Below are positions 3,163 through 50,331 of a DNA stretch of 64,000 nucleotides, one piece after another (the first letter of the stretch is position 1; the number at the start of each line of letters is the position of its first letter). The stretch is from a virus. The DNA lies in the IMG/VR virus record IMGVR_UViG_3300043444_000221, positions 1 to 64,000 of that record. One strand, written 5' to 3'. The notes beneath the pieces are model-generated. The model worked only from the letters and a program-made list of their open reading frames with translations. It made no database searches and was not told the origin of the DNA. The translations under genes and the position numbers were made by a program.

Positions 3163-6100
3163 ATGAGTTACGCTGGCTTGCATGTCCACACACACTACTC
3201 GCTATTTGACGGAATTGCAACACCACAGGAATATGTGGATCGTGCCGTAGAGCTGGGAATGCCAGCAATTGCAATCACTGACCACGGAAGTCTATCAGGA
3301 CACCGTGAAATGTATCGTGCTGCTAAAGAAGCAGGAATTAAGCCAATCCTTGGCATCGAAGGGTATATCACAAAAGACCGCTTTGACCACACAGACAAGA
3401 AGGAAAAGAATGATCCTCTTGATCTAAATTACAACCACCTAATCATTATTGCAAAGAATGCTAAGGGGCTACAGAACCTCAACAAGCTTAATGAGATTGC
3501 TTGGACAGAAGGATTTTATAAGAAGCCACGCATTGACTGGGATATCCTTGAAGAGTATAAGGATGGTCTCATTATTACATCTGGATGTTTGTCTGGTGTA
3601 TTGGCTAAGGCTATCGAAGCAAATGAGTTTGCATATGCTAAGGAACATATTACAAAGTGTAAGAAGATTTTTGGCGATGACTACTATATTGAGGTTATGC
3701 CACACAACCCACCTGAGATTAATAAGGCACTGCTTGAACTAGCAGATGAGTTTGGTGTAAAGCCAGTTGTTACTCCAGACTGTCACCACTCTGATCCTTC
3801 ACAGAAGGAAATTCAGGAACTTAAGTTGATTCTAAACTCATACTCAAATAAGGTTGAGAAGGGTGCAACTTATGAGGGATCCAAAAAGTATGATAATTTG
3901 ATGGACCGTCTAGATTACCTATATGGTGCAGACCGCCAGATGTCATTTAATAAGTTTGAGATTCACCTACTTTCTGACGAAGAAATGCATAATGCCATGA
4001 AGGCCCAAGGCATTGACCGTGAAGATATGTATGAGGCTACTATTGAAATTGTTAATAAGGTAGAAGACTACAAGATTAAAGATCACCAAGACCTTCTTCC
4101 TGTGCAGTATCAGAATCCTAACAAAGAGTTACGAGAGCTTGCCCTTGCTGGCCTAAAAGACCGTGGCATTGAGACAGAAGAATATCTAGCACGTCTGGAT
4201 GAAGAGCTAGAAGTAATTGAAGCAAAGAACTTTGGACCATACTTCCTTGTTGTACGCTCAATGATTTCCTGGGCTAAAAAAGAAGGAATTATGGTTGGTC
4301 CAGGTCGTGGTTCTGCAGCAGGCTCACTACTCTGCTATGCTCTAGGAATCACAGACATTGATCCAATTCAGCATGGACTATTGTTCTTCCGATTTATCAA
4401 CCCAGAGCGTAATGACTTCCCAGATATTGATACTGATATTCAGGACTCACGTCGTGAAGAAGTAAAGGATTACCTAGTGCGTCAGTATAAGCATGTTGCG
4501 TCTATTGCAACATTTTTACAGTTCCGTGGCAAGGGCATGGTCCGTGATATTGCACGTACACTCAACGTACCGCTAGCAGATGTTAATAAGGTTCTAAAGG
4601 TTGTTGATGACTGGGACGACTACTGCTCTTCAAAGCAGTCAGCATGGTTCCGTGAAAAGTATCCTGAAATTGAGACTTATGGTGACCTTCTTCGTGGAAG
4701 AATTCGTGGCACTGGTATTCACGCTGCAGGTGTTGTTACATCTAAACAACCTATCTTTAAGTTTGCTCCACTAGAAACTCGCACGTCTCCAGGAAACAAG
4801 GAACGCATTCCTGTTGTGGCGGTAGACATGGAAGAAGCAGAGCGTATTGGTCTAATTAAGATTGATGCACTTGGACTCAAGACATTGTCTGTTCTACGAG
4901 ACACTCTAGACATTATTGAAGAACGTCATGACAAGAAGATTGACCTATTGTCAATTGATATGGATGATGCAAATGTATATAGAATGCTATCTGATGGATA
5001 TACAAAGGGTGTGTTTCAGTGTGAGGCAACACCATATACAAATCTTTTGGTAAAGATGGGTGTAAAAAATCTAGATGAGCTTGCTGCTTCTAATGCTCTA
5101 GTTCGTCCAGGTGCTGCAAATACAATTGGTAAGGACTACATTGCACGTAAGCAAGGTAGACAGAATATTGATTATAAGCACCAAGTGATGAAGTCTTTTA
5201 CTGCAGAAACGTATGGGTGTATTCTATATCAGGAACAGGTCATGCAGGCTTGTACAGAGCTAGGCGGTATGACGATGGCTGAGGCTGACAAGGTTCGTAA
5301 GATTATTGGAAAGAAGAAAGATGCTAAAGAGTTTGATCAGTTCAAAGATAAGTTTATTGATGGTGCTAGTAGGTTTATTTCTCCTAACGCTGCTATGGAC
5401 CTATGGCACGATTTCGAAGCACACGCAGGTTACTCTTTCAACAAGTCCCACGCCGTTGCCTACTCAACACTCTCATATTGGACAGCGTGGCTAAAGTATC
5501 ACTATCCACTAGAGTTTATGTACTCAATTCTTAAGAATGAAAAAGATAAGGATGCACGTACAGAATATCTGATTGAGACAAAGCGTATGGGAATTCCTAT
5601 CAAGCTCCCACATGTTAATGATTCAGATGCTGACTTCAAGATTGAGGGCAAGGGTATTCGATTTGGACTAACTGGAATTAAGTATATCTCTGACAATATT
5701 GCATCTAAGTATATGGCTGCTCGTCCATTTAATAGCTACAAGGAACTTGAAGAGTTTACGTTTGGCAAGGGTAATGGCGTTAATAGTCGTGCACTACAGG
5801 CAATGAGAGTAATTGGTGCTGCTACATTCCAAGATCAGCCACGAAATGACCAAGAGATTCGTGAGAACCTATACGAGTATCTAAATCTACCAGAATTTAA
5901 TATCACAGTGCCTCAGCACTATCACGCATTCATCAGTGACGTAGAAGAGTTTGAGGAAAAGGGTTCGTTCATTTTGATGGGTATGGTAAAAGAGATTAAG
6001 CGTGGCAAGGGTTGGTCACGTGTAGAAATTTTAGACAAAACAGGAAGTGTAGGTATATTTGACGATGAGCAGTCTGCAATCGAAACTGGAAAGACATATC

Positions 6101-6438
6101 TTATTTTGGCTAGCGATAATCGCATTACTGAAGCCATCCAGATTGATGAGATTGGTAAGGTTGATTCGGCACTTGTGAAGTATCTAAACTACAAGCAGTT
6201 GCCATATAAAGACGAAGAAATGTTTGTTGTCTCATTTAAGTCACGCATAACCAAGGCTGGCAAGAAGATGGCAACACTTACTTTGGCAGATGCATCTAGA
6301 GAACTGCACCCTGTGACAGTATTCCCTACTGCATATGCTAAGGCTTATATGAAGATTCAGGAAGGATCTGCATACAAATTTGATTTGGGTAAAACCAAGG
6401 ATGGAACAATAATTATGGAGGATGTACATGCAATTTGA
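3163..6438 (+). CDS. dnaE: DNA polymerase III alpha subunit
   Basis: PHP domain (HVHTHYS, ITDHG), GRGSAAGS, PDIDTD, HAAG, KIDALGL, YSFNKSH. Confidence 0.97.
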   Translation: MSYAGLHVHTHYSLFDGIATPQEYVDRAVELGMPAIAITDHGSLSGHREMYRAAKEAGIKPILGIEGYITKDRFDHTDKKEKNDPLDLNYNHLIIIAKNAKGLQNLNKLNEIAWTEGFYKKPRIDWDILEEYKDGLIITSGCLSGVLAKAIEANEFAYAKEHITKCKKIFGDDYYIEVMPHNPPEINKALLELADEFGVKPVVTPDCHHSDPSQKEIQELKLILNSYSNKVEKGATYEGSKKYDNLMDRLDYLYGADRQMSFNKFEIHLLSDEEMHNAMKAQGIDREDMYEATIEIVNKVEDYKIKDHQDLLPVQYQNPNKELRELALAGLKDRGIETEEYLARLDEELEVIEAKNFGPYFLVVRSMISWAKKEGIMVGPGRGSAAGSLLCYALGITDIDPIQHGLLFFRFINPERNDFPDIDTDIQDSRREEVKDYLVRQYKHVASIATFLQFRGKGMVRDIARTLNVPLADVNKVLKVVDDWDDYCSSKQSAWFREKYPEIETYGDLLRGRIRGTGIHAAGVVTSKQPIFKFAPLETRTSPGNKERIPVVAVDMEEAERIGLIKIDALGLKTLSVLRDTLDIIEERHDKKIDLLSIDMDDANVYRMLSDGYTKGVFQCEATPYTNLLVKMGVKNLDELAASNALVRPGAANTIGKDYIARKQGRQNIDYKHQVMKSFTAETYGCILYQEQVMQACTELGGMTMAEADKVRKIIGKKKDAKEFDQFKDKFIDGASRFISPNAAMDLWHDFEAHAGYSFNKSHAVAYSTLSYWTAWLKYHYPLEFMYSILKNEKDKDARTEYLIETKRMGIPIKLPHVNDSDADFKIEGKGIRFGLTGIKYISDNIASKYMAARPFNSYKELEEFTFGKGNGVNSRALQAMRVIGAATFQDQPRNDQEIRENLYEYLNLPEFNITVPQHYHAFISDVEEFEEKGSFILMGMVKEIKRGKGWSRVEILDKTGSVGIFDDEQSAIETGKTYLILASDNRITEAIQIDEIGKVDSALVKYLNYKQLPYKDEEMFVVSFKSRITKAGKKMATLTLADASRELHPVTVFPTAYAKAYMKIQEGSAYKFDLGKTKDGTIIMEDVHAI

Positions 6439-6748
6439 TGATTGGGCAGAAGAGCTACACAAGACTGCCGTAGCTAAAGGCTTTTGGCCAGAAGACGTAG
6501 ATGATATCTTCATTACAAAGCAATTGATGATGATTGTGTCAGAGGCTGTAGAGGTCATGGAGGCTATCAGAAAAGATAAGGGAGAAGACCAAATCGCTGA
6601 TGAAATGGCAGATATCCTTATTAGAACTTTTGATCTATACGCAGGGCTAGTGGAGCATGGCTATACCAGAACTTCGCTAGACTATGCTATGGAGAAGAAG
6701 ACAAGCTTCAACAAGACACGACCAGAAAAGCACGGGGTAAAGTTCTAA
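6422..6748 (+). CDS. MazG-like nucleotide pyrophosphohydrolase
   Basis: SEAVEVME...DEMADILIR (ExxE...ExxD). Confidence 0.8.
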   Translation: MYMQFDDWAEELHKTAVAKGFWPEDVDDIFITKQLMMIVSEAVEVMEAIRKDKGEDQIADEMADILIRTFDLYAGLVEHGYTRTSLDYAMEKKTSFNKTRPEKHGVKF

Positions 6749-7761
6749 TGACAGTAAGTGTAGAAGACGTACTAGCACAGCTTAATCCAAAGCTACGTAA
6801 AAACATTATGGTTGGAGATTCAGTTCCAGAGACAGAGTTTCAACCAACACCAAGCTTTGGCCTTAATAGAGCACTTAATGGTGGATTGCCATATGGTCGC
6901 CAGGTATTGATTTGGGGATCTAAATCATCTGCAAAGTCATCTGTATGTCTACAGACAATTGCTCTTGCACAAAAAGAGGGAAAGATCTGTGCATGGATTG
7001 ATGCTGAAATGTCGTATGACAAATCATGGGCAGAACGCCTAGGTGTAGATACATCAAAGCTTATCGTGTCTCAAGCACGTACAATCAATGACATGGTTGA
7101 TGTTGGCACCCAGCTGATGAATGCTGGAGTAGACATAATCGTTGTTGACTCTATTACATCTCTGCTGCCTGCAATCTACTTTGAGAAAGACTCTGATGAG
7201 CTCAAGCAGCTAGAAAATACTAAGCAGATTGGTGCAGAAGCTAGAGACTTTAGCAATGCAGTAAAAATGCTTAACTATGCAAATAACAAAGTTAAGCCTA
7301 CGCTACTAATCTTTATTAGTCAATCAAGAAATAATATTAGTGCCATGTATACTAGCCAGCAGCCAACTGGAGGTACATCTGTTAAGTTCTATTCATCCAC
7401 TATTATTAAACTATTTTCGTCTGAATCAGACAACCAAGCAATAAAGGGGAAGATCCATGTTGGAGATAAGTTCATTGAAGAAAAGATTGGTAGAAAAGTT
7501 CGCTGGGACCTTCAGTTCTCTAAGACTTCGCCTGCTTTCCAGGGTGGCGAGTATGATTTCTATTTTAGAGGCGATGATGTTGGTGTTGACAGTATTGGTG
7601 ATCTTGTTGACACAGCAGAACAGCTAGGAATTGTCAATAGAACTGGTGCATGGTATCAGCTAGATGATGGAACAAAAATCCAGGGTAGAGATGCCTTTGT
7701 GGCTAGAGTAAAGGAAGACCTAGACCTTCAAGACTCTATTAAGGCAAAGCTTAATGGCTAA
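6748..7761 (+). CDS. recA: RecA-like recombinase
   Basis: GGLPYGR, WIDAE, IIVVDS, TGG..VKFYSS, GAWY. Confidence 0.93.
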   Translation: MTVSVEDVLAQLNPKLRKNIMVGDSVPETEFQPTPSFGLNRALNGGLPYGRQVLIWGSKSSAKSSVCLQTIALAQKEGKICAWIDAEMSYDKSWAERLGVDTSKLIVSQARTINDMVDVGTQLMNAGVDIIVVDSITSLLPAIYFEKDSDELKQLENTKQIGAEARDFSNAVKMLNYANNKVKPTLLIFISQSRNNISAMYTSQQPTGGTSVKFYSSTIIKLFSSESDNQAIKGKIHVGDKFIEEKIGRKVRWDLQFSKTSPAFQGGEYDFYFRGDDVGVDSIGDLVDTAEQLGIVNRTGAWYQLDDGTKIQGRDAFVARVKEDLDLQDSIKAKLNG

Positions 7762-9352: not shown

Positions 9353-10150
9353 ATGAATAATAATAATGTAGCACCAATGCATAAATGGCTAACAGACTTT
9401 GATAAGTACAACAAGCCTTTGCCAATCTATATCGAAAAACCATTCAATGAGCAGCAGATTGAGCTATTGCGTGGGGTAATTGAAAATAACCGCAGCCTAA
9501 TGAATAACGCTCAGTATGATCGTCTTCAGGGCAGCCAAGAGCAGTACTATGGCGAGACAAGATTCCACCCAAAGAAGATTGTTCACATGTCAAGACTACT
9601 CATTGAGTTTGTATGCCCACCAGAGATTGAGGCGGTAATGGATTCCTATGCAAAGCCTTTGCACCAGGATCCAGTCAGACTAACTCACTATAATTATATT
9701 GACTACAATATGGCATATGGAGATGGCAAGCATGCACCATCACTGCCACCACACCTAGATGCAGATGAGAACTTGGTAACATTCAACTACTGCCTTGACC
9801 AGAATATTGAAGACTGGACATTGTGGGTAGAGGATAAAGAGTATGAGCTAAAGAAGGGTGATGCCATCATCTTTAGTGCTGTTAACCAGGTTCACTGGAG
9901 ACCAAAGCGTAAGTGGAAAGAAGGAGAGTTTTGCGAAATCGTAAGCTTTGACTACTGTCCAGTTACAAACTATAGATGGACTGGACAGACAAACCCCATT
10001 GATCCAATGGAGAGATTTGCTGAAAGACAGGCATATCAGGATGAAGTGGCCAAGCACCCAAAGATGGTTGCTGCATGGGAAATTTACAATGCTATGGGCC
10101 TAGATGCTGGCATTCCACAGCAAGATATTGCAGGTTTTGTAAATGAGTAA
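9353..10150 (+). CDS. 2OG-Fe(II) oxygenase-like protein
   Basis: HLD...GDAIIF...HWR. Confidence 0.75.
   Translation: MNNNNVAPMHKWLTDFDKYNKPLPIYIEKPFNEQQIELLRGVIENNRSLMNNAQYDRLQGSQEQYYGETRFHPKKIVHMSRLLIEFVCPPEIEAVMDSYAKPLHQDPVRLTHYNYIDYNMAYGDGKHAPSLPPHLDADENLVTFNYCLDQNIEDWTLWVEDKEYELKKGDAIIFSAVNQVHWRPKRKWKEGEFCEIVSFDYCPVTNYRWTGQTNPIDPMERFAERQAYQDEVAKHPKMVAAWEIYNAMGLDAGIPQQDIAGFVNE

Positions 10151-17308: not shown

Positions 17309-17316
<8 letters not shown>
16915..17316 (+). CDS. nrdI: Flavodoxin-like NrdI
   Basis: [25 protein letters not shown]. Confidence 0.95.
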
Positions 17317-20384
<3,068 letters not shown>

Positions 20385-24678: not shown

Positions 24679-24709
24679 CAAAATCTCAGCTAGGTGGTAT
24701 ATTTAATAC

Positions 24710-24889
24710 ATGACAGATAAAAACTTTGATGAGCTATACGATTGGCTCCAGCACGGAATTGAAAAAGGTTGGGTAACAGAACCATTCTGCTACACACATG
24801 ATGGTGATCCATACATGACAGAAGAAGAAGAGCAAGAGTGGGAAGATGGAGGAGACCCATGTTGTCCCGTAGTAAAACTTATTCAGTAG
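24710..24889 (+). CDS. Small acidic hypothetical protein (59 aa, not in ORF track)
   Basis: Leaderless after TTGACA-N17-TATATT; C..HDG...DPCC. Confidence 0.7.
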   Translation: MTDKNFDELYDWLQHGIEKGWVTEPFCYTHDGDPYMTEEEEQEWEDGGDPCCPVVKLIQ

Positions 24890-25749
24890 GAATATCTTTA
24901 TCAGTTGCTGCATCAATATTTGCTGCAAGTCCTGCACATGCAATCTATGAAGGCTATGATGCAAATGGAGACAAGCTTGTGTCAGCAACATACATGGGGA
25001 ATGGTTGTTCAGTAGCACCAATTGCTAAGCGACTATTGGTTATGGCTCAGCATTGCCCAGCTATCCCAAATCAAACCAAGTATGTATATCCTGGTGAACC
25101 TGCAAACTCTAATAATACAGTAACTGCACTAAAAACTTTTGTTCCACAGGGAGAGTTTAAGGGTGGCCGTGAATACGACATCATGATTGTTGTGGTTGAT
25201 AAGGATCTTCCATTATCAGACAATCTGCTGATTGCAACTGAGCAGGATGTGCAAAGATTTATTGCAAACAATAATGAGATAGTTACATATGGATTTGGTC
25301 TGACAGAGTCAAAGTCTTCATCTACCACTGCAAAAAAGGCAGTCTTTAAAATGTTTGAGGGCATAGATGGGGCAGTTTCTAGTTCATATAAGTACTCACT
25401 CTCTCTGACTCCAGTTAATGGTAAGCAAGAAGTATGTAATGGAGACTCAGGTGGACCATCATATGTGTTTGACTCTGACAAGATCTACTACATTGGTGCA
25501 ACTATTGCTTCAAATAAAATGAATGGATGTGGATCAGATCAACATCTTGCACCAATTGCAAGAGTACAAACTCTATATCCATTTCTAGATATTTTTAAAA
25601 ATGCTAGTGATTGGGTGTTGCAAACTCAGCCGAAATCTGATACAATAGTAGAACCAAAGCAGGAAACAATTACTGCGGTGGCAAAACCTGTAGTTAAAAA
25701 GAAGGTTGTAATTAAGAAACCTGTCAAGAAAACTACAAAGAAAAAATAG
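24859..25749 (+). CDS. Secreted trypsin-like serine protease
   Basis: Signal peptide ending PAHA; AQHC, DIM, GDSGGP triad; Lys-rich tail. Confidence 0.88.
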   Translation: MLSRSKTYSVGISLSVAASIFAASPAHAIYEGYDANGDKLVSATYMGNGCSVAPIAKRLLVMAQHCPAIPNQTKYVYPGEPANSNNTVTALKTFVPQGEFKGGREYDIMIVVVDKDLPLSDNLLIATEQDVQRFIANNNEIVTYGFGLTESKSSSTTAKKAVFKMFEGIDGAVSSSYKYSLSLTPVNGKQEVCNGDSGGPSYVFDSDKIYYIGATIASNKMNGCGSDQHLAPIARVQTLYPFLDIFKNASDWVLQTQPKSDTIVEPKQETITAVAKPVVKKKVVIKKPVKKTTKKK

Positions 25750-25755
25750 AATAAT

Positions 25756-25828
25756 TGCCCTATAGCTCAGCTGGCAGAGCGTCCGACTGTTAATCGGCAG
25801 GTCCCTGGTTCGATCCCAGGTGGGGCAG
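25756..25828 (+). tRNA. tRNA-Asn(GTT)
   Basis: Cloverleaf; TGCCCTA/TGGGGCA acceptor stem; GTTCGATC. Confidence 0.93.
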
Positions 25829-25832
25829 CAAA

Positions 25833-26014
25833 CACATTGACGACGGTTGATGTGGAGTATGACCGAATAATTCCCAAAGTCAAATGGGGGGAATAAGGTA
25901 CTATCGGATCTTAGCGGATCGTCTTAGCGGACAAACGGTAGGTGTGCTCAAAAGCGGTACTTGATGAACCGTATTGACTAGGCACTGGTGGTAAAAGGCA
26001 ATCCACCTACTCAC
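25833..26014 (+). ncRNA. Candidate structured ncRNA A (between tRNAs)
   Basis: Several nested helices, tandem TTAGCG-loop hairpins, possible pseudoknot; no ORF. Confidence 0.65.
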
Positions 26015-26018
26015 TCTT

Positions 26019-26092
26019 GGTCCTGTAGCTCAGTTGGTTAGAGCACTACCCTGTCACGGTAGGGGTCGCCAGTTCAAGTCTGGTCAGGATCG
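26019..26092 (+). tRNA. tRNA-Asp(GTC)
   Basis: Cloverleaf; CTACC-CTGTCAC-GGTAG anticodon arm. Confidence 0.93.
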
Positions 26093-26093
26093 C

Positions 26094-26260
26094 TCAGAAG
26101 CATAAGTCTGAACAACTTATGTGGAGATTGTTATACTGAAATCTGCACCGTGGACGCATCATACGAAGGGGTTCAGCCCGATGGAGATTGCTCTGCTAAT
26201 CCACTAGGTATAACAGCCAATGGGAATAGTTCCTTAACCAAAAGGTGACCACGATTGGCA
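26094..26260 (+). ncRNA. Candidate structured ncRNA B (between tRNAs, pseudoknotted)
   Basis: Compact H-type pseudoknot plus further helices; no ORF. Confidence 0.6.
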
Positions 26261-26263
26261 AAT

Positions 26264-26338
26264 GCCTTCTTAGCTCAGTGGTAGAGCAACGCACTTGTAA
26301 TGCGTAGGTCGTCAGTTCAATCCTGACAGAAGGCTCCA
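26264..26338 (+). tRNA. tRNA-Thr(TGT)
   Basis: Cloverleaf with encoded CCA. Confidence 0.95.
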
Positions 26339-26339
26339 T

Positions 26340-26411
26340 GGCCCCATCGTCTATCGGTTAGGACTTCAGATTTTCAATCTGGCAAGACGGGTTCGATTCC
26401 CGTTGGGGCTG
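26340..26411 (+). tRNA. tRNA-Glu(TTC)
   Basis: Cloverleaf; TCAGA-TTTTCAA-TCTGG anticodon arm. Confidence 0.9.
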
Positions 26412-26432
26412 CTATAATAGTATTGGAAAGGT

Positions 26433-27125
26433 TTGGATATGGAAAAGCCTCCTATTATAACGCATGACATCAATAATTTTGAGATCTGGTATGAAACCAA
26501 AGATCCAAACTTTACTGAACTATCAAGACGATCAAACATCCCAATGAATTGGATGTCATATCAAGTGGTCCTATCTGGAGATAACAAGGACTCAATCATT
26601 AAGCCTATAAATAGGTATGTTGAAAGACTAGTTCCGCCACCAAAGCTAATAAGTATTAAAGATAATATTGTTAGACTTCGTCAGGGCAACCACGCAGAAA
26701 TGTTTTTGCTAGAAAAAGAAGACGGAGAGTTTTATAATGTTGATCGTCCGTGGCAAAGACAATACTATAATACTGCCCTAGACCTTGAAGCAGAAGACTG
26801 CTTTCCTGGAACTTTTAAATTCTATGTCCCATGGTTTATTGACGAAAACATTCCAGTGTATTTTCATCCATCAGAAGAAGAAAGCCCATTCTACACGTTT
26901 CCAACAATGGCTCCATATCACAAAGTACCGTCAGACGTAAGATTTGTTGAGCCACACTTTGTTCCATTTAGATTTAAGAGAGTTGGCTCTCATATGATCA
27001 ACGATAAGTTTGGTAAAATACCAAGACAGTCTGCAATGTATGACATGGTTTTCTATGCAGATGATATAATAATAGAAAGAGTAAAGGAATTCTATGACAA
27101 ACATAATTCAGTTTTATCCGCTTAA
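26433..27125 (+). CDS. Hypothetical protein
   Basis: Long ORF heading the operon; start uncertain. Confidence 0.7.
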   Translation: MDMEKPPIITHDINNFEIWYETKDPNFTELSRRSNIPMNWMSYQVVLSGDNKDSIIKPINRYVERLVPPPKLISIKDNIVRLRQGNHAEMFLLEKEDGEFYNVDRPWQRQYYNTALDLEAEDCFPGTFKFYVPWFIDENIPVYFHPSEEESPFYTFPTMAPYHKVPSDVRFVEPHFVPFRFKRVGSHMINDKFGKIPRQSAMYDMVFYADDIIIERVKEFYDKHNSVLSA

Positions 27126-30794: not shown

Positions 30795-31696
30795 TGTCAG
30801 TAGATATTGGTAGCAACATTAATTTTGGACACATCGTAAACGGTAGTGTCATGGAATTCTCAACACAATTTGGATATAGTGGGTGGACAAAGACTGGCCC
30901 TGGACCAGGACTTGGTAAGCATAACTGGTATGACCAAATTGACTTATATATAAATTCACATGGATTTAGGTGTGATGAATTTGTAGAAAAAGATAAGCAT
31001 GATGGCATGCACCTTTTGTTTGCAGGATGTTCTGTAACTTGGGGAGATGCTACAAAGAGCAAAGATCTTTGGGCAAAAAGGGTATATGACAAAATATCTT
31101 CAGTTCACAAGACTAGCGGATACTTTAATATAGGTTTCCCAGGGATGAGCATTATACAAGAAATATTCTGGATCATAAAGTATTGTAAAGCTTTTGGGAA
31201 CCCAGACTTTATATTTTTTCTTATGCCAAATGTTGGCAGATTTGTTAATGTTGGCTACATTGGCGGTGGAGATAGTCCAGTACTTGGAAGCTCATTGATG
31301 GATACAGAAAGTAAAGACTTTGATACAAACTCTTTATTGTTAGCAGCCTACCTAACATTTGAGGCCTACCTAATGCTTGATGAATATTGCAAGGCATCAG
31401 GGATAACCCTAATATCCAGTACATGGTCTGATCATCCAAATGAAAGAATAAACCACGGTAACTCGTTTATAAACCCAACAGCTAGTTTGCTAAAGGGTAA
31501 GTTTGACACATTCTTTGACTTTATGCAAGATGGTGTTGACAAATTGGAATGGATGTATGAGTATATAGTTAAAAATCCAGAAGCAACATTAAGAGCAATT
31601 GATGATATACATCCAGGCTCAGCAGAACATGCGTACTTTGCTACCAGAATGCTAGACAGATACAGAGAGATAACAAGTGAAGATATTAGGCTTTAA
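30794..31696 (+). CDS. SGNH/GDSL-like hydrolase or acyltransferase
   Basis: FAGCSVTWG, NIGFPG, DDIHPG. Confidence 0.7.
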   Translation: MSVDIGSNINFGHIVNGSVMEFSTQFGYSGWTKTGPGPGLGKHNWYDQIDLYINSHGFRCDEFVEKDKHDGMHLLFAGCSVTWGDATKSKDLWAKRVYDKISSVHKTSGYFNIGFPGMSIIQEIFWIIKYCKAFGNPDFIFFLMPNVGRFVNVGYIGGGDSPVLGSSLMDTESKDFDTNSLLLAAYLTFEAYLMLDEYCKASGITLISSTWSDHPNERINHGNSFINPTASLLKGKFDTFFDFMQDGVDKLEWMYEYIVKNPEATLRAIDDIHPGSAEHAYFATRMLDRYREITSEDIRL

Positions 31697-33095
31697 CGAA
31701 ACTTCTCATGATGCAGCTGTTGCTGTTGTTAAAAATGGAATGATTCTATTTGCAGGGCATGCAGAACGGTATAGTAAAGAAAAGAATGACTGGTACACAA
31801 ACGATGATTTGTGGAATGATGCACTTAGATGGGGAAAGCCAGACGCAATAGCTTACTACGAAAAGCCATGGCTAAAGAAATTTAGGCTTTGGAAAAATGG
31901 TGGGGCAGCGGACTGGAAGCCCAAACACAGATATGATGTATCATTTAAGCACCACTACTCTCACGCATGTGCTGGATACTACACAAGTACATTTGATAAA
32001 GCAGCAATAGTTGTCCTTGATGCAATGGGAGAATTTGCAACATCTACCGTCTGGTCTGGTGATGGCGAAGAGATTAAGCTTGTCAAAGAAATAAAGTATC
32101 CACTTAGCTTTGGATTATTCTATACAGCATTTACAAAACTTATCGGACTCAAGCCAAACGAACATGAGTATATCCTTATGGGTATGGCAGGGTATGGAGA
32201 TCCAGCGAGATACTTTAAAAAGGTATCTGAGTATTTCCCATACACTGGTAAGCAGAAGTACAACTACCACAAGGGCATTACTGATTGGAATGAGCCAATT
32301 GATGAGCAAGCTAAATTTGATATAGCTGCTGCAGTTCAGAGAGTTTATGAATATAGGCTGTGGGACTTTATGTCTCAGGTAAGAAATGAATTACTGCCAA
32401 ATTATGGCAACCTTGTTTTTATGGGTGGTTGTGCATTGAATGCATCTGCAAATACAATGTTGTGGAAGATATTTGATAACATTTGGATTATGCCAAATCC
32501 AGGGGATGCTGGCAGTTCTTTGGGGGCTGCCCTTGCACTTCGTGGAAAGCATGTAAGGTGGGAAGGCCCATACCTTGGGTACGATCTTGGTAATGAGTAT
32601 CCAGTAGACGCAATCTTTAATGAAATAATGACAAACAAAGTATGTGCAGTAGCTGCAGGAAGAGCAGAGTTTGGTCCACGTGCACTTGGTAATAGAAGCA
32701 TCTTGGCAGACCCAAGAGATCCAGACATCAAGGATAAGGTTAATAGAATAAAGCAGCGTGAACTCTTTAGGCCATTTGCCCCAGTGGTTATGGCTGAGCA
32801 TGCATCTGAATGGTTTGATATGAATTATGAATCTCCATATATGCAGTACACTCCAAAGTGTCTAAAGCCTGAAATCATTCCATCAGTTGTACACGTAGAT
32901 GGAACTTCCAGAGTTCAGACAGTTACAAGAGAACAGCATCCAGGACTATATGCAGTCCTAGAAAAGTTCTACAATGAAACTGGTGTTCCAGTATTGCTTA
33001 ATACTAGTCTGAATGTTAAGGGGCAGCCATTACTTAACGATGAAGATGACATTAAGCTTTGGGAAGAAACCTATAATACTAAGATTGTGAGATAA
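31677..33095 (+). CDS. Carbamoyltransferase (NodU/CmcH family)
   Basis: HDAA, HHYSHA, MGMAGYG, GGCALN, GDAG, EFGPRALGNRS, RPFAP, NTSLN. Confidence 0.95.
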   Translation: MKILGFNETSHDAAVAVVKNGMILFAGHAERYSKEKNDWYTNDDLWNDALRWGKPDAIAYYEKPWLKKFRLWKNGGAADWKPKHRYDVSFKHHYSHACAGYYTSTFDKAAIVVLDAMGEFATSTVWSGDGEEIKLVKEIKYPLSFGLFYTAFTKLIGLKPNEHEYILMGMAGYGDPARYFKKVSEYFPYTGKQKYNYHKGITDWNEPIDEQAKFDIAAAVQRVYEYRLWDFMSQVRNELLPNYGNLVFMGGCALNASANTMLWKIFDNIWIMPNPGDAGSSLGAALALRGKHVRWEGPYLGYDLGNEYPVDAIFNEIMTNKVCAVAAGRAEFGPRALGNRSILADPRDPDIKDKVNRIKQRELFRPFAPVVMAEHASEWFDMNYESPYMQYTPKCLKPEIIPSVVHVDGTSRVQTVTREQHPGLYAVLEKFYNETGVPVLLNTSLNVKGQPLLNDEDDIKLWEETYNTKIVR

Positions 33096-33098
33096 GTC

Positions 33099-34043
33099 AT
33101 GAAAGATAAAACAATTTTTATAACAGTTCCTGCCTACAATGATCCAGCACTAATCAGAACTATTGAGGGTGCGTTGGAGAATGCCTTGTTCCCAGAAAGA
33201 TTATTTTTTTGTATAGGAATGCAGTATCATGATGACAGAATGCCAGACATCTCTAAGTATTTGGATAACCCAAACTTTAAGTTTTTATTTTATGATGTAG
33301 AGACTCGTCCAGGAGTTTACTGGGTAAGACGAGAGATGGCAGAGCAGCATAGCGGACAAGACTATTTCCTAATGATAGATTCTCATATGGTGTTTGCAAA
33401 GTATTGGGATGCTACACTAATCAATGACTATGATGCACTTGTTAGGTTGCATGGGGAAAAGACAGTATTGTCTAGGCCAACCATGAAACACGTTGGCTCA
33501 ACCTTTGATAATGGTTTTGTAACTGATGCTGTTTATTGGGGCATAACACCAAATAATGATTTAAATGTTATTGATAGGACAATTAGTCCAGCAGCAGATA
33601 GTGAACCATGGGATGGTACTAGGTACAGAAGAAGCTTCCAGTCATGCAGCCACTTCTTCTTTACAAATAAGAACTATTTAAAAGATGTTGGATTCTTCCC
33701 AATTATAAGATCATACACAGAAGAATACACCATATCTATAGCAAGCTTCTTGTCTGGATGGGATTATTACTATAACACTGAATATATTCCTATAGGTCAC
33801 GATGATGAAGAGACTACCATGGCAATTTATGGTAAGCCAATGTATACTATGGGTCAGGGAAAGCCTTATCAGGCACTATACGAAAGTCCTGATGAGAGGG
33901 TTGAGATGGCAAAGTTTCAATTCTTAGACAGCTCTTCTGTCTTTAAGGTTAAGAATCAAAGGCGTACAATAGAAGAGTTCTATGACCTGAACCCTCAACT
34001 AAAAGATATAAGGCAGATGTACATAGCAATGCTTGGCCTTTAA
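33099..34043 (+). CDS. GT60-like (Skp1 GlcNAc-transferase-like) glycosyltransferase
   Basis: IFITVPAYND, YFLMIDSHMVF..WD, EE, GWD. Confidence 0.82.
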   Translation: MKDKTIFITVPAYNDPALIRTIEGALENALFPERLFFCIGMQYHDDRMPDISKYLDNPNFKFLFYDVETRPGVYWVRREMAEQHSGQDYFLMIDSHMVFAKYWDATLINDYDALVRLHGEKTVLSRPTMKHVGSTFDNGFVTDAVYWGITPNNDLNVIDRTISPAADSEPWDGTRYRRSFQSCSHFFFTNKNYLKDVGFFPIIRSYTEEYTISIASFLSGWDYYYNTEYIPIGHDDEETTMAIYGKPMYTMGQGKPYQALYESPDERVEMAKFQFLDSSSVFKVKNQRRTIEEFYDLNPQLKDIRQMYIAMLGL

Positions 34044-34085
34044 TATTCTGGTATAATTTTGTACTGTCGTATAAGGAGGCCAAAT

Positions 34086-34664
34086 ATGGCAGACAAAAAC
34101 ACAGCAGCCCTATTAGTTGAGGTTGCAAAAAAGGAACTTGGAACTATTGAGGGTCCAAAGGATAACGAAACCAAATATGGTAAATTTACAAAGGCAAACT
34201 TTCAAGCTTGGTGCGGATCATTTGTTATGTGGTGTGCAGATCAAGCAGGTGTAAAGGTGCCAAACACTGTCTATACTCCTGCAGGTGCAGAAGGTTTTAA
34301 GAAGATGGGTACTTGGGTTGATGCTAAGAGCGGAGAAGCTCCACAGCCAGGTGACATTCTTTATTTTGATTTTCCAGAAGACGGTGTCAATAGAATTTCA
34401 CACGTTGGTATTTGTATTAAGGCTGGCAAAGATGGACTATGCACAACCATAGAAGGCAACACATCTGGGACTGCAAAGGGAGACCAGAGAAATGGTGGAA
34501 TGGTTGCAGAAAAGGTTCGTGGATATGCAAAGAATAAAAAGGGTATTCAGGTGTCTATTGTTGGATGGGGTAGACCAAAGTTTTCTCCTAATACTTCGGT
34601 AGCAGAAAAGCCTTTTGACACAGACTCAGTCACAGAAATTTATTGTGACTATTTAGAAGCATAA
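34086..34664 (+). CDS. CHAP/NlpC-like peptidoglycan hydrolase
   Basis: WCGSFV, PQPGD, SHVG, IEGNT. Confidence 0.88.
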   Translation: MADKNTAALLVEVAKKELGTIEGPKDNETKYGKFTKANFQAWCGSFVMWCADQAGVKVPNTVYTPAGAEGFKKMGTWVDAKSGEAPQPGDILYFDFPEDGVNRISHVGICIKAGKDGLCTTIEGNTSGTAKGDQRNGGMVAEKVRGYAKNKKGIQVSIVGWGRPKFSPNTSVAEKPFDTDSVTEIYCDYLEA

Positions 34665-34699
34665 TGTGTTAAAATATATTTATATAGAAGGAGGGCCAC

Positions 34700-35458
34700 A
34701 TGGCCAAATATCAATATCCGATTGACGGAGGAAAAAACAAAGGCTGGAAAATCAGCAGCAAGATGGGCTGGAGAATTCACCCAGTCCAGAAAACTAAGAA
34801 GCACCACAATGGTACTGACATCTTTGGACTTGGAAAGAAGCCATGGTACATCGAAGCATTCGCAGATGGAAAGGTTCTAAAGGCACAGAAGTCAACTGCT
34901 GCAGGTGGTGGATTTGGATACTATGTAGTTCTTTTGCACAAGATTGATGGAGAATTTTATACATCACTATACGCTCACATGGAAGAAGGATCTTTGCAGG
35001 TAAAGCCTGGACAGACAGTTACCGCTGGTACAGTTCTTGGAAAGATGGGAACTACTGGTATGTCAACTGGTGTTCACCTACACTGGGAGATCTGGAAGGG
35101 TAAGGAGCATGGATGGTCTGCAGACGGCAAGGGCTTTGTTGAGCCAATTGGATTTGTAGAAGCACTCATGGCAGCAGAAAAGGCAAAGGCATCAGCTGAT
35201 GAGGTAACCCCTTCTGACGCTCCAGCACAGCCACTGCCAGCTCACTCAACTATGCCAGAGGAAAAGCCAAAGCCAGCACCAAAGCCAGTTGCTAAGCCAG
35301 TTGCAAAAGCACCTGCTAAGGTGTATACTGTTAAGGCAGGGGATACACTGAGTGGTATTGCTACAAAGAACAAAACAACAGTAGCTAATCTAGTAAAGAT
35401 TAACGGGATCAAGGATGCTAATAAGCTATCTGTTGGTCAAAAAATTAAGCTAGCCTAG
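34700..35458 (+). CDS. M23 peptidase with LysM (endolysin)
   Basis: HNGTD, YAHM, STGVHLH; YTVKAGDTLSGIA LysM. Confidence 0.93.
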   Translation: MAKYQYPIDGGKNKGWKISSKMGWRIHPVQKTKKHHNGTDIFGLGKKPWYIEAFADGKVLKAQKSTAAGGGFGYYVVLLHKIDGEFYTSLYAHMEEGSLQVKPGQTVTAGTVLGKMGTTGMSTGVHLHWEIWKGKEHGWSADGKGFVEPIGFVEALMAAEKAKASADEVTPSDAPAQPLPAHSTMPEEKPKPAPKPVAKPVAKAPAKVYTVKAGDTLSGIATKNKTTVANLVKINGIKDANKLSVGQKIKLA

Positions 35459-35529
35459 TTGACAGATAATCACAGGGGTGGTATACTTTATATAGTATGC
35501 CACCCTTTGTGGCCTTTATAGGAGGAAAT

Positions 35530-35730
35530 ATGGAATCCAATAAAAGAAGTTTGATTAAGACATTGAGCTGGGAAACATTCCATCTCATTGGAGTAGCTGG
35601 TGTAATTTATCTTTTCACTGGCGAATGGGAGTATGCAAGCCTTGGTGCCTTGATTTATATTGCCTGGGAATCTCTAGGGTATTACATCCATGAGCGTCTT
35701 TGGGCTAAGTTTGGCAAGAAGGTAAAGTAA
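35530..35730 (+). CDS. DUF2061-like membrane protein
   Basis: RSLIKTLSW...YYIHERLW. Confidence 0.8.
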   Translation: MESNKRSLIKTLSWETFHLIGVAGVIYLFTGEWEYASLGALIYIAWESLGYYIHERLWAKFGKKVK

Positions 35731-35906
35731 TGCCAGTATATGAGTATGCATGTACATCATGCGATCATTCATTTAAAGAGACAAGAAGTATCCACGACCC
35801 ATCACCTGAGCATTTGTGCGAAAAGTGTGGGTATAGAATGCGTCAAGTAATTGGCACACCTGCTATCCAGTTTAAGGGTAGCGGATTCTATCAAACAGAT
35901 AAGTAG
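35730..35906 (+). CDS. FmdB-family zinc ribbon protein (58 aa, not in ORF track)
   Basis: MPVYEYAC..C...C..CG...FKGSGFY.TD. Confidence 0.88.
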   Translation: MPVYEYACTSCDHSFKETRSIHDPSPEHLCEKCGYRMRQVIGTPAIQFKGSGFYQTDK

Positions 35907-35914
35907 GAGTAGGC

Positions 35915-36151
35915 ATGGAAATTGCAATATCTCATGAATGGACATTGACAGCTAATGATCGTTGCGACAGCTGTGGTGCACAGGCATATGTACAGGTAAC
36001 TGGAGTATCTGGAGACCTACTGTTTTGTTCTCACCACTACAATAAGATTGTAGATAATGCTGTTGGATATGACAAAATGATGAAGTTTGCATTCAAGATA
36101 GTTGATGAGCGAGAACGTCTTGAAGAGAATCGGACAAAGGGTGAAGACTAA
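35915..36151 (+). CDS. Small zinc-binding protein of actinobacterial type
   Basis: LTANDRCDSCGAQAYV...LLFCSHH. Confidence 0.75.
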   Translation: MEIAISHEWTLTANDRCDSCGAQAYVQVTGVSGDLLFCSHHYNKIVDNAVGYDKMMKFAFKIVDERERLEENRTKGED

Positions 36152-37145
36152 AAGAGTATTGCTTACTGGCGGTGCTGGATTTTTGGGTAGTCACGTCTTA
36201 AAGCGTATCCTAGATACAACTGATTGGGAAGTTGTCTGCCTAGTTACATTCAAGCATCATGGCATTCAGGATAGACTTGTATTTGCAACTGAAAATTTGC
36301 CAGAAAAGCTTGGTAGGGTAAAGGTTCTGACCTGCGACCTATCTTCGCCAATATCGTCAGTAACATCAAATAAGATTGGCAAGATTGACTATGTTCTAGA
36401 TTTAGCAAGTGAAAGCCATGTAAACAGAAGCATTGAAGATCCTGCACCATTTATTATTAATAATGTTCAGGTTATTTGTCATATGCTTGAGTGGGCCAGA
36501 GAAGCAAAGCCTGAAAAGTTTATTCACATATCTACTGATGAAGTGTTTGGTCCATATCAGGGAAGACATTTTACTGAGTGGGACACACACTTGCCAAGCA
36601 ATCCATATAGTGCATCTAAGGCTGCACAAGAAGATATTATGTATTCCTATTGGAGAACATACTCTATGCCTTTGGCAATAGTAAACATCATGAATATCGT
36701 TGGCGAGTGCCAGAATGTTGAAAAGTTTACACCAATGATAATTAAAAAAATTATTAATAATGAGACCGTAGACATTCATACATATGACAATGGCAAAATT
36801 GGCAAGAGATACTGGCTTTATGCTGGCAATATGGCATCAGCACTACTGCACATACTGACAAAAGATTTTGTGCTGCCATCTGATTCTAGCAAACCACTAA
36901 GGTTTAATATTGCTGGAGATAAAGAGTACTCTAATTTAGAGTGGGCAGAAAAGATCTCGTCAATACTTGACAAAAAATTAAATTATCAGATGGTTGATTC
37001 ATCAGTTTCACGTCCAGGATATGACTCTAGCTATGCTCTAGACAATAGCAAACTAATAGAGTCTGGTTGGTCTGCACCGTATGATCTTGATCAAGAAGTA
37101 AGCAACATAGTTAAATGGTATATGGAGAACCCAGAATGGTTATAA
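36141..37145 (+). CDS. dTDP-glucose 4,6-dehydratase-like
   Basis: TGGAGFLG, ASESHVNRSI, ISTDEV, YSASK, RPG.D. Confidence 0.9.
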   Translation: MKTKRVLLTGGAGFLGSHVLKRILDTTDWEVVCLVTFKHHGIQDRLVFATENLPEKLGRVKVLTCDLSSPISSVTSNKIGKIDYVLDLASESHVNRSIEDPAPFIINNVQVICHMLEWAREAKPEKFIHISTDEVFGPYQGRHFTEWDTHLPSNPYSASKAAQEDIMYSYWRTYSMPLAIVNIMNIVGECQNVEKFTPMIIKKIINNETVDIHTYDNGKIGKRYWLYAGNMASALLHILTKDFVLPSDSSKPLRFNIAGDKEYSNLEWAEKISSILDKKLNYQMVDSSVSRPGYDSSYALDNSKLIESGWSAPYDLDQEVSNIVKWYMENPEWL

Positions 37146-38332
37146 GGGATAAGTGTCGTGCATGCAATAGCACAAAACTATTTACAGCGATTGATCTTGG
37201 GCTACAGCCTTTGGCAGGTGGCTTCATAAAAGATAAAGAGCCAGCATACTTGTATCCAAATGCTATGTTGGTTTGTGAGGATTGCGGTCTTGGCCAACTT
37301 TCTGTTGATGTCACTCCTAGTGAGCTGTATAAGAATTATAACTGGAGAACATCAACAAGTAAGTCTTATCTTGACTACATATATGATTTTGCAGATAAGC
37401 ATATTATTCCAAGAATAAACCCAGGGGAATGGGTCCTTGAAATTGCAAGTAATGATGGATATCTATTAAAATATCTAAAATCAAAAGGTATTGATGTTCT
37501 GGGGGTAGACCCTGCAGAGAATATATCTAGATATGCTATCTGTGATGGTGTACCAGTAATCACAGATTTTTTTGGAACTGCTGTTGCAGAAGACATAGTT
37601 AGACTAAAGGGCAAGCCTAAGTGGATTGTTGCTAATAATGTTATGGCACATACACCAGATATTCAGGACTTTATGGCAGGCATATCAATGCTGTCTGATA
37701 GGGATACTATTGTTACGGTAGAGAATCCAACTATCATGAACATTATTGATCACGATCACTTTGACGTTATTTTCCATGAGCATTATTCCTATTTGTCTGC
37801 ACATGCAGTTGCAAAACTTGCTAATCGCATGGGGCTATCACTATTTGATGTTCAGTCAGTGCCACCGCAGGGTGGGTCAAATAGGTACTGGATAAAGCAG
37901 GGCGGAGAGCCAACTGAGGGAGTTAGGGTTGCAGTTAGAGAAGAGTTGGAGTATGGTCTACTAAATAAAGATAAGTGGCAAGCTACTCAAGATAGGATTA
38001 CACGTAATGCCAAATCTTTTGCTGGCAAGGTAGAATCTATTTGGCAGTCTGGTGGCACCATTTGTGGAGTTGGAGCATCTGCAAAGTCAACTGTTGTTTT
38101 AAATTTTGCAGGAATACAGTCGCACAGAATCTCTGCAGTTGCAGATGATGTAAAAGAAAAACAGGGATACAATATTCCTGGACCAATTATTCCAATTACA
38201 AGCATGGAAGATATGCTAAAATTGAATCCAACTGATATAATAGTTTTTGCGTGGAATATTAGAAAAGAACTAGAGAGTAAGCTACGCAACTTGGGATACA
38301 CAGGAAAAGTCTGGGTATGGAACGGAGAATAG
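37136..38332 (+). CDS. NDP-hexose C-methyltransferase
   Basis: CRAC...C..C zinc domain, EIASNDG, NVMAH, HEH, GASAK, AWN. Confidence 0.88.
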   Translation: MVIRDKCRACNSTKLFTAIDLGLQPLAGGFIKDKEPAYLYPNAMLVCEDCGLGQLSVDVTPSELYKNYNWRTSTSKSYLDYIYDFADKHIIPRINPGEWVLEIASNDGYLLKYLKSKGIDVLGVDPAENISRYAICDGVPVITDFFGTAVAEDIVRLKGKPKWIVANNVMAHTPDIQDFMAGISMLSDRDTIVTVENPTIMNIIDHDHFDVIFHEHYSYLSAHAVAKLANRMGLSLFDVQSVPPQGGSNRYWIKQGGEPTEGVRVAVREELEYGLLNKDKWQATQDRITRNAKSFAGKVESIWQSGGTICGVGASAKSTVVLNFAGIQSHRISAVADDVKEKQGYNIPGPIIPITSMEDMLKLNPTDIIVFAWNIRKELESKLRNLGYTGKVWVWNGE

Positions 38333-50168: not shown

Positions 50169-50245
50169 GGGGCAGTAGTTCAGAAGGTTAGAGCGTCACT
50201 CTTATAAGGTGAAAGTCGTGGGTTCAAGTCCCACCTGCCCTACCA
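50169..50245 (+). tRNA. tRNA-Ile(TAT)
   Basis: Cloverleaf; TCACT-CTTATAA-GGTGA anticodon arm; ACCA end. Confidence 0.9.
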
Positions 50246-50246
50246 T

Positions 50247-50320
<74 letters not shown>

Positions 50321-50331
50321 CAAATGATATA

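Follow-up and report, generated by a model that had tools for sequence, protein, structure and literature searches.

A spacer of 189 nt between two phage tRNA genes raises the question of what it encodes, and whether its product serves the neighbouring tRNAs or acts in its own right. The DNA analysed here (hereafter the window) is a stretch of 64,000 nt, positions 1 to 64,000 of the IMG/VR virus record IMGVR_UViG_3300043444_000221, in which the complete spacer between tRNA-Asn(gtt) and tRNA-Asp(gtc) is the region 25830-26018 on the + strand. A first-pass annotation, made from the letters of the window, had put forward a novel structured non-coding RNA at this place, a novelty that would not survive a match to an Rfam family already described. 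Such a match was obtained when the 64-kb window was scanned with Rfam. The manA RNA family (RF01745) matches at 25835-26017 on the + strand with 64.8 bits (E 3.2e-14), above the curated gathering score of 55.2 bits, and the alignment is full-length, covering model positions 1-192 of 192. This is the sole manA match in the 80-kb viral record that contains the window. A covariance model of our own, R1, built from inter-tRNA relatives, places the element at 25829-26018 with 184.1 bits, and the alignment maps the window helices one-to-one onto the Rfam manA consensus. The RNA encoded by the spacer at 25829-26018 belongs to the manA family, in a divergent branch of it. The claim of a novel RNA falls with this match: taken as a single locus, the element is an ordinary representative of a catalogued family.

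Other identities of the spacer were dropped. No ORF of at least 50 aa overlaps the manA-type RNA on either strand, which removes a small-ORF reading, and no Rfam match at the spacer corresponds to another family, a degenerate tRNA or a tmRNA. GOLLD and ROOL gave no Rfam match in the window at the gathering threshold, nor around the element at E values up to 1.

Weinberg et al. 2010 (PMC2864571) regarded manA as a riboswitch candidate that probably regulates in cis from 5' UTRs, and reported it from marine metagenomes, T4-like cyanophages and two gamma-proteobacteria; the 5'-UTR description is repeated in a cyanophage genome paper (PMC9964418). A preprint reports cryo-EM structures of RF01745 RNAs as pentamer-based octamers, decamers and a 60-subunit icosahedral-like cage, with intermolecular kissing loops (10.64898/2026.07.01.735769). 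These assemblies were obtained in vitro, at high RNA and Mg2+, from canonical manA only; the same preprint treats manA as a putative 5'-UTR element, and the word tRNA is absent from it. No paper found in the searchable literature describes manA in tRNA arrays.

The structural features of the family are found in the window element. The order of the helices is the same: a 5' GACG hairpin, a closing helix, an arm of the form UGAC-GAAUAA...UAAGG, a two-hairpin branch, the long P8 arm and a 3' hairpin with a GGUA-N6-AAUCC loop. Both RNAs are phage-borne, and the first-arm loop pairs with the long arm, in line with the contact proposed for manA ("pseudoknot?" in Weinberg et al. 2010). The genomic position is different, as there is no 5' UTR here, with tRNA-Asn directly upstream and tRNA-Asp 1 nt downstream of the element. 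Since a 5'-UTR position is a contextual and not a structural feature, the element is still filed in the manA family.

Fold, conserved loops and long-range contact

Table 1 Features of the tRNA-Asn/tRNA-Asp spacer and its flanking genes, in window coordinates
Feature	Position	Strand	Sequence and remarks
tRNA-Asn (anticodon GTT)	25756-25829	+	ARAGORN; Rfam tRNA 25756-25828, 62.1 bits; directly upstream of the manA-type RNA
manA-type RNA, tRNA-array branch	25829-26018	+	Rfam RF01745; model R1; fills the whole inter-tRNA spacer
P1, 5' hairpin, 9 bp	25833-25854	+	CACATTGAC 25833-25841 / GTTGATGTG 25846-25854; conserved GACG loop 25842-25845
P2, 5' strand	25855-25859	+	GAGTA; pairs with 26008-26012; closes the multi-helix junction
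P3/P4 arm	25860-25899	+	Conserved UGACCGAAUAA ... UAAGGU internal loop; P3 ACC/GGU; P4 AUUCCC/GGGAAU; 13-nt loop
P4	25870-25875 / 25889-25894	+	ATTCCC / GGGAAT
Pseudoknot or kissing strand, P4 loop	25878-25883	+	AGUCAA; pairs with UUGACU 25974-25979
P5, enclosing twin hairpins P6 and P7	25901-25941	+	CTATCG 25901-25906 / CGGTAG 25936-25941
P6 and P7, loops	25911-25916 and 25924-25929	+	P6 GAUC/GAUC, P7 GUC/GAC; loops UUAGCG
P8 arm	25944-25985	+	Outer helix GTGC 25944-25947 / GCAC 25982-25985
P9 hairpin	25987-26007	+	GGTGG 25987-25991 / CCACC 26003-26007; conserved loop UAAAAGGCAAU (signature GGUAA-N5-AAUCC)
P2, 3' strand	26008-26012	+	TACTC (UACUC); pairs with 25855-25859
tRNA-Asp (anticodon GTC)	26019-26093	+	ARAGORN; Rfam tRNA, 66.2 bits; directly downstream of the manA-type RNA

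The helices that the first-pass annotation had read from the letters are all present where it had placed them, and the mapping onto the Rfam manA consensus agrees with them (Table 1). The minimum free energy fold (-56.8 kcal/mol, z = -2.68 against dinucleotide shuffles) reproduces most of these helices. Among 35 distinct homologues, standard pairs are found in 87.9% of cells, compared with 60.3% in shuffles (a value reached in 0/500) and at most 45.3% in slid controls, in an alignment (n=35) that is model-based and fitted to the structure, and hence biased in its favour. The same 35 sequences show changes on both sides in 45/49 pairs and give a covariation score of 0.734, against 0.213 in shuffles (again 0/500 reach it) and no more than 0.163 in slid controls. 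A plain MAFFT alignment yields the same covariation picture. Because of the size of the effect, and because fully re-written stems can be seen by eye, there is no doubt that the fold is real despite the structure-fitted alignment. The idea of a structured non-coding RNA, for which covariation among homologues had been named as the check, is supported.

The support is spread over the whole element. All nine P1 pairs (9/9) are changed on both sides, with 88-90% of cells paired, and the closing helix P2 is 98.9% paired, with covariation at 5/5 pairs. In the first arm, P3 is 100% paired and P4 72.9%, all 6/6 P4 pairs covarying. The twin hairpins behave likewise, P6 being paired in 98.6% and P7 in 91-100% of cells with every pair covarying, while the outer helix of P8 reaches 94.2% and P9 100%. 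The inner part of P8 alone has no covariation support in the 35 homologues: the CGGT/ACCG pairing of the first-pass annotation can form in the window and in close relatives, yet not throughout the family, and the alternative Rfam register, GUAC/GUAU, is paired in 57% of cells only.

Regarding the loops, G13 of the P1 GACG loop is invariant in 29 sequences, as are GGTAA and AATCC in the P9 loop, and the P3/P4 arm has invariant bases at T31, G32, C34, G36 and A37. In the first of the twin loops UAGC is invariant across the 29 sequences; in the second, C99 and G100 are invariant and U95, U96, A97 and G98 are at least 90% conserved. Nearly invariant YUAGCG loops carried on freely covarying stems indicate that something conserved is recognised. 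A by-eye search for Watson-Crick complementarity among the conserved loops (YUAGCG, GACG and UAAAAGGCAAU) found none, which makes mutual kissing of these loops by simple pairing unlikely.

A different pair of loops is complementary. The 13-nt loop of P4 contains the 5' strand of a long-range contact, AGTCAA, whose 3' strand, TTGACT, forms the 3' internal loop of P8. This contact, first proposed as a pseudoknot from the letters, is upheld by the relatives, among which its strands occur in at least 12 sequence versions, complementary every time. It is paired in 93.9% of cells (66.7% in shuffles, at most 47.6% in slid controls), and in an unbiased, all-against-all scan of the alignment columns it emerged as the only additional covarying stack. 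The "pseudoknot" could be an intramolecular contact or an intermolecular kissing contact, two arrangements that covariation cannot tell apart.

A divergent manA branch in tRNA arrays

Relatives were collected by two pattern scans of viral contigs, filtered with Rfam and R1 (L numbers denote loci); in the second scan, about two matches in three were due to chance, and the counts are restricted to elements confirmed by R1. With Rfam, canonical manA RNAs reach 150-197 bits; R1 finds them full-length, at 19-68 bits. Conversely, the divergent branch that includes the window element reaches 92-190 bits with R1 against 38-73 bits with Rfam. The branch therefore straddles the Rfam cut-off: the window element, L071, Rhodococcus phage Francesca and L176 lie above it, and L160, L150, L219 and the phages P1201, Zion and Wakanda below. 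The twin YUAGCG loops are specific to the branch and missing from the Rfam manA consensus, the peripheral loops of canonical manA being different.

The two groups also differ in what surrounds them. According to an ARAGORN census, a same-strand tRNA adjoins 32/40 distinct branch members (80%), compared with 4/46 canonical cyanophage-type manA (9%). The upstream tRNA is found at a gap of -2 to +5 nt in 22/40 branch members and a downstream tRNA within 70 nt in 26/40; the remaining 8/40 have no adjoining tRNA within the DNA retrieved. Most tRNAs of the arrays that carry the branch are 0-5 nt apart, with no such element between them. Flush placement recurs in numerous phages unrelated to one another, four cultured groups among them. 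In Francesca the element fills the spacer between tRNA-Met and tRNA-Lys of a long array, in Corynebacterium phage Zion and its relatives it lies between tRNA-Trp and tRNA-Ser, and in Corynebacterium phage P1201 between tRNA-Arg and tRNA-Gly. Streptomyces phage Wakanda carries an enlarged manA-type RNA of 242 nt (L237:1495-1736; NC_070785 66234-66468; 39 bits with Rfam, 64 bits with R1), flush between tRNA-Gln and tRNA-Trp and unannotated in the record.

Unannotated copies of the branch are present in the Corynebacterium phages Zion, PotatoChip, PeteyPab, Kimchi1738, Stickynote, Darwin, C3PO, Cruella and P1201, as well as in Francesca and Wakanda, and every one of these cultured carriers infects Actinobacteria (Corynebacterium glutamicum in the case of P1201, C. 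vitaeruminis in that of the Zion group). Among 50,697 isolated phage records, Francesca is the sole relative of the window element at the nucleotide level, with 76% identity and an Rfam manA score of 72.9 bits, and blastn searches of the isolated-phage collection with L160 and L219 returned no match. The window DNA itself is present in freshwater metagenomes from many studies, outside the marine, cyanophage and Photobacterium range of manA, and its DnaE-type polymerase is closest to a Streptomyces phage DnaE (55% amino-acid identity). The window phage is probably a phage of freshwater actinobacteria, and the branch occurs in actinophage-type genomes of freshwater and soil, in contrast to the marine cyanophages and Photobacterium of canonical manA. 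The branch is a variant undescribed in the searchable literature, marked by its place in tRNA arrays, the twin YUAGCG loops, a range among actinophages and sub-threshold Rfam scores.

Cellular genomes were scanned as well. In about 186,000 representative prokaryotic genomes, an exact pattern, which could miss divergent copies, gave 36 twin-loop matches; none was real by R1 and none lay in a tRNA array.

Several further features of these arrays and contigs were recorded. About nine branch members carry a separate hairpin of 26-48 nt on the 3' side of the element, ahead of the next tRNA (L150, at 6240-6265, L129, L125/L148, L145, L151, L159, L178 and L213); in L150 it is followed by a U tract, and such hairpins may be terminators or processing signals. 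The arrays of two close relatives, L203 and L168 (12-22 tRNAs, otherwise 0-5 nt apart), contain spacers of 155-215 nt (L203:344-516 and L203:912-1125; L168:691-904 and L168:978-1132), which may hold additional uncatalogued structured RNAs. In the window, the next spacer (spacer B, 26094-26263, 170 nt, from tRNA-Asp to tRNA-Thr) is nearly identical in the arrays of L238, L168 and L203, relatives too similar to one another for covariation analysis. Spacer B has no Rfam match and its fold is not better than that of shuffles (z -0.88); it is covered by contigs from RNA libraries, with a common end at 26249 in three runs.

The window phage also encodes a DnaE-type DNA polymerase III alpha (3163-6438), RecA (6748-7761), a class I ribonucleotide reductase (17309-19423) and a sugar-modifying block (31677-38332) with a carbamoyltransferase, a GDP-mannose-dehydratase-like epimerase and a C-methyltransferase, and it has a second tRNA pair, Ile-TAT and Arg-TCT, at 50169-50321. 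The viral contig L219, which bears a manA-type RNA of the branch, has in addition a partial match to permuted or alpha-type tmRNA at 9389-9594 (49.9 bits against a cut-off of 50), truncated by the end of the locus. On cyanophage-like contigs, matches to the glutamine riboswitch (glnA leader) are located a few hundred bases from canonical manA (L080:2333-2381 and L005:2608-2659).

Probable release from the array and proposed mode of action

The arrangement points to an RNA that is made together with tRNAs. The manA-type RNA of this branch is built into tRNA arrays instead of 5' leaders, and we think it likely that it is cut out as a stable RNA and acts in trans. It would be co-transcribed with the flanking tRNAs, and the tRNA-processing enzymes of the host would free a discrete, stable RNA of about 170-190 nt. 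The RNase P cut at the 5' end of tRNA-Asp would set the 3' end of this RNA, and 3' processing of tRNA-Asn would set its 5' end, presumably by an endonucleolytic cut after the discriminator because CCA is not encoded (CAAACA follows the discriminator). These steps belong to established tRNA maturation and, given the flush, same-strand geometry, the enzymes that mature the neighbouring tRNAs would necessarily liberate the manA-type RNA. Release by tRNA processing had been anticipated in the first pass and it holds as an inference, with flush same-strand tRNAs in 32/40 relatives and with RNA-library contigs that cover the element. A promoter and terminator scan found no terminator-like site in 24700-26700, and its seven promoter-like sites, versus 5.1 expected, are uninformative on the start of transcription.

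Four freshwater metatranscriptome runs, each from a different study (X15-X18), provided contigs for comparison with the region 25500-26600. Three short contigs lie on the element: one from X16 (25848-25964, depth 2115, no mismatch), one from X18 (25845-25981, depth 1678) and one from X17 (25905-26006). A fourth, from X15 (25878-26249, about 370 nt, depth 696), runs from the 3' two thirds of the element through tRNA-Asp into the next spacer; such contigs cannot prove transcription, ends or strand, RNA libraries can contain DNA, and contig depth is a poor measure of abundance. In X16, Illumina adapter junctions were found at 25848 and at 26014, the latter 2 nt past P2. The contigs are compatible with an abundant RNA whose 3' end is 2 nt beyond the closing helix, with 4 nt left to the 5' end of tRNA-Asp. 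At the other side, RNA contigs begin at 25845-25848 (X18 and X16), inside the 5' hairpin at the 3' edge of the GACG loop and not at the 3' end of tRNA-Asn, and the picture of an RNA reaching from tRNA end to tRNA end may thus be wrong at its 5' side. The mature RNA could be about 167 nt long if the loop of the 5' hairpin is a cutting site; alternatively, strain variation could have broken the contigs at this point. No joints fall on the element in the contigs of the four runs, and nothing in these contigs hints at a circular or spliced form. No contig from these runs maps to the flanking ORFs (25500-25750 and 26430-26600), a missing cover that proves nothing.

Once freed, the manA-type RNA would be a folded particle that acts in trans. 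If canonical manA in vitro is taken as the model, it probably multimerises by loop-loop contacts into closed, RNA-only assemblies. The link with tRNA arrays suggests a role in the supply of phage tRNAs or with host factors that act on tRNAs.

The flush position between tRNAs also fits a passive or cis-acting structured spacer, which would aid folding or processing of the neighbouring tRNAs, or shield them from exonucleases, and then be discarded; further long spacers of the same arrays are conserved too. We consider this unlikely. The invariant loops and the covarying long-range contact argue against a mere spacer, which has no need for UAGC(G) twice, GACG and GGUAA-N5-AAUCC, nor for a contact of 5-6 bp that is preserved through sequence change. 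The tRNAs of the same arrays are mostly separated by 0-5 nt and do without such an element, and the homologous canonical manA is found without an adjoining tRNA in 42/46 cases. The RNA-library contigs on the element are of high depth, although contig depth measures abundance poorly.

The twin identical loops had also prompted the suggestion, in the first-pass annotation, of a protein-binding or decoy RNA. Such an RNA would titrate a dimeric or repeated host or phage protein, for example a tRNA-targeting defence nuclease or a tRNA-modifying enzyme. Nearly invariant YUAGCG loops on freely covarying stems are the pattern expected of loops read by a conserved partner, and phage tRNA arrays have been discussed as counter-measures to tRNA-targeting defences (PMC12803027). 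This pattern is explained equally well by tertiary or quaternary RNA-RNA contacts, as in the cryo-EM structures of the family, and inspection of the loops found no complementarity to tRNA features. The one experimental study of the family, the cryo-EM preprint, indicates homo-oligomers held together by loop contacts between RNAs, and not a protein partner. A decoy is in our opinion distinctly unlikely, and it can hold together with the explanation of a processed RNA.

A cis-acting riboswitch or attenuator, through which a ligand would govern how the downstream tRNAs are transcribed or how stable they are, is very improbable: the rating of manA as likely cis-regulatory came from its complex fold and its 5'-UTR positions (PMC2864571), and a hairpin, sometimes with a U tract, does stand between the element and the next tRNA in about nine relatives, but the window copy has 1 nt between the closing helix region and tRNA-Asp, no terminator-like site and no protein gene after it, so that an expression platform would lack space, a gene to be regulated is missing and the reading does not fit, while the 22/40 relatives with a tRNA directly upstream are array-internal and not leaders, and no manA ligand was found in the searchable literature.

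Comparison with known systems

What gives the element its interest is the branch of which it is part. Since 2010 manA has been an orphan "riboswitch candidate", and it is newly reported as a cage-former in vitro, without biological context. A tRNA-array branch without a gene to regulate argues for manA-type RNAs being products in their own right. The unannotated copies in cultured phages of tractable hosts make the function of the RNA directly testable.

A comparable organisation exists in phage T4, an enterobacterial myovirus, whose tRNA gene cluster encodes the small stable RNAs species 1 and 2 (rnaC/rnaD). These are non-tRNA products, co-transcribed with the phage tRNAs and matured by the tRNA-processing machinery of the host. 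The likeness to the manA branch is one of organisation alone, and we know of no homology between species 1 or 2 and the manA-type RNA.

The branch also places manA-type RNAs beside GOLLD and ROOL, the other cage RNAs of tRNA islands. These are RNAs of phages and prophages, "often near tRNA islands" or in tRNA arrays, that form closed, RNA-only cages (PMC12286853; PMC12990946). The location in tRNA islands of phages is shared with the manA branch, and cage formation has been reported for canonical manA. There is no homology in sequence or structure between them; GOLLD and ROOL are about 600-800 nt long, 3-4 times the 189 nt of the window element, and their cages have dihedral symmetry, whereas those of manA are pentamer-based. 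We tentatively raise the possibility, which we hold to be less likely than not, that manA-type RNAs are a third, small class of cage RNAs next to GOLLD and ROOL, derived from tRNA-array transcripts, in which the "pseudoknot" would be the intermolecular contact of the cage. If so, phage tRNA arrays would have cage-forming RNAs as a general accessory, with a function linked to the biology of tRNAs, and the cages would store or shield phage tRNAs, or trap host factors such as tRNA-targeting defence nucleases.
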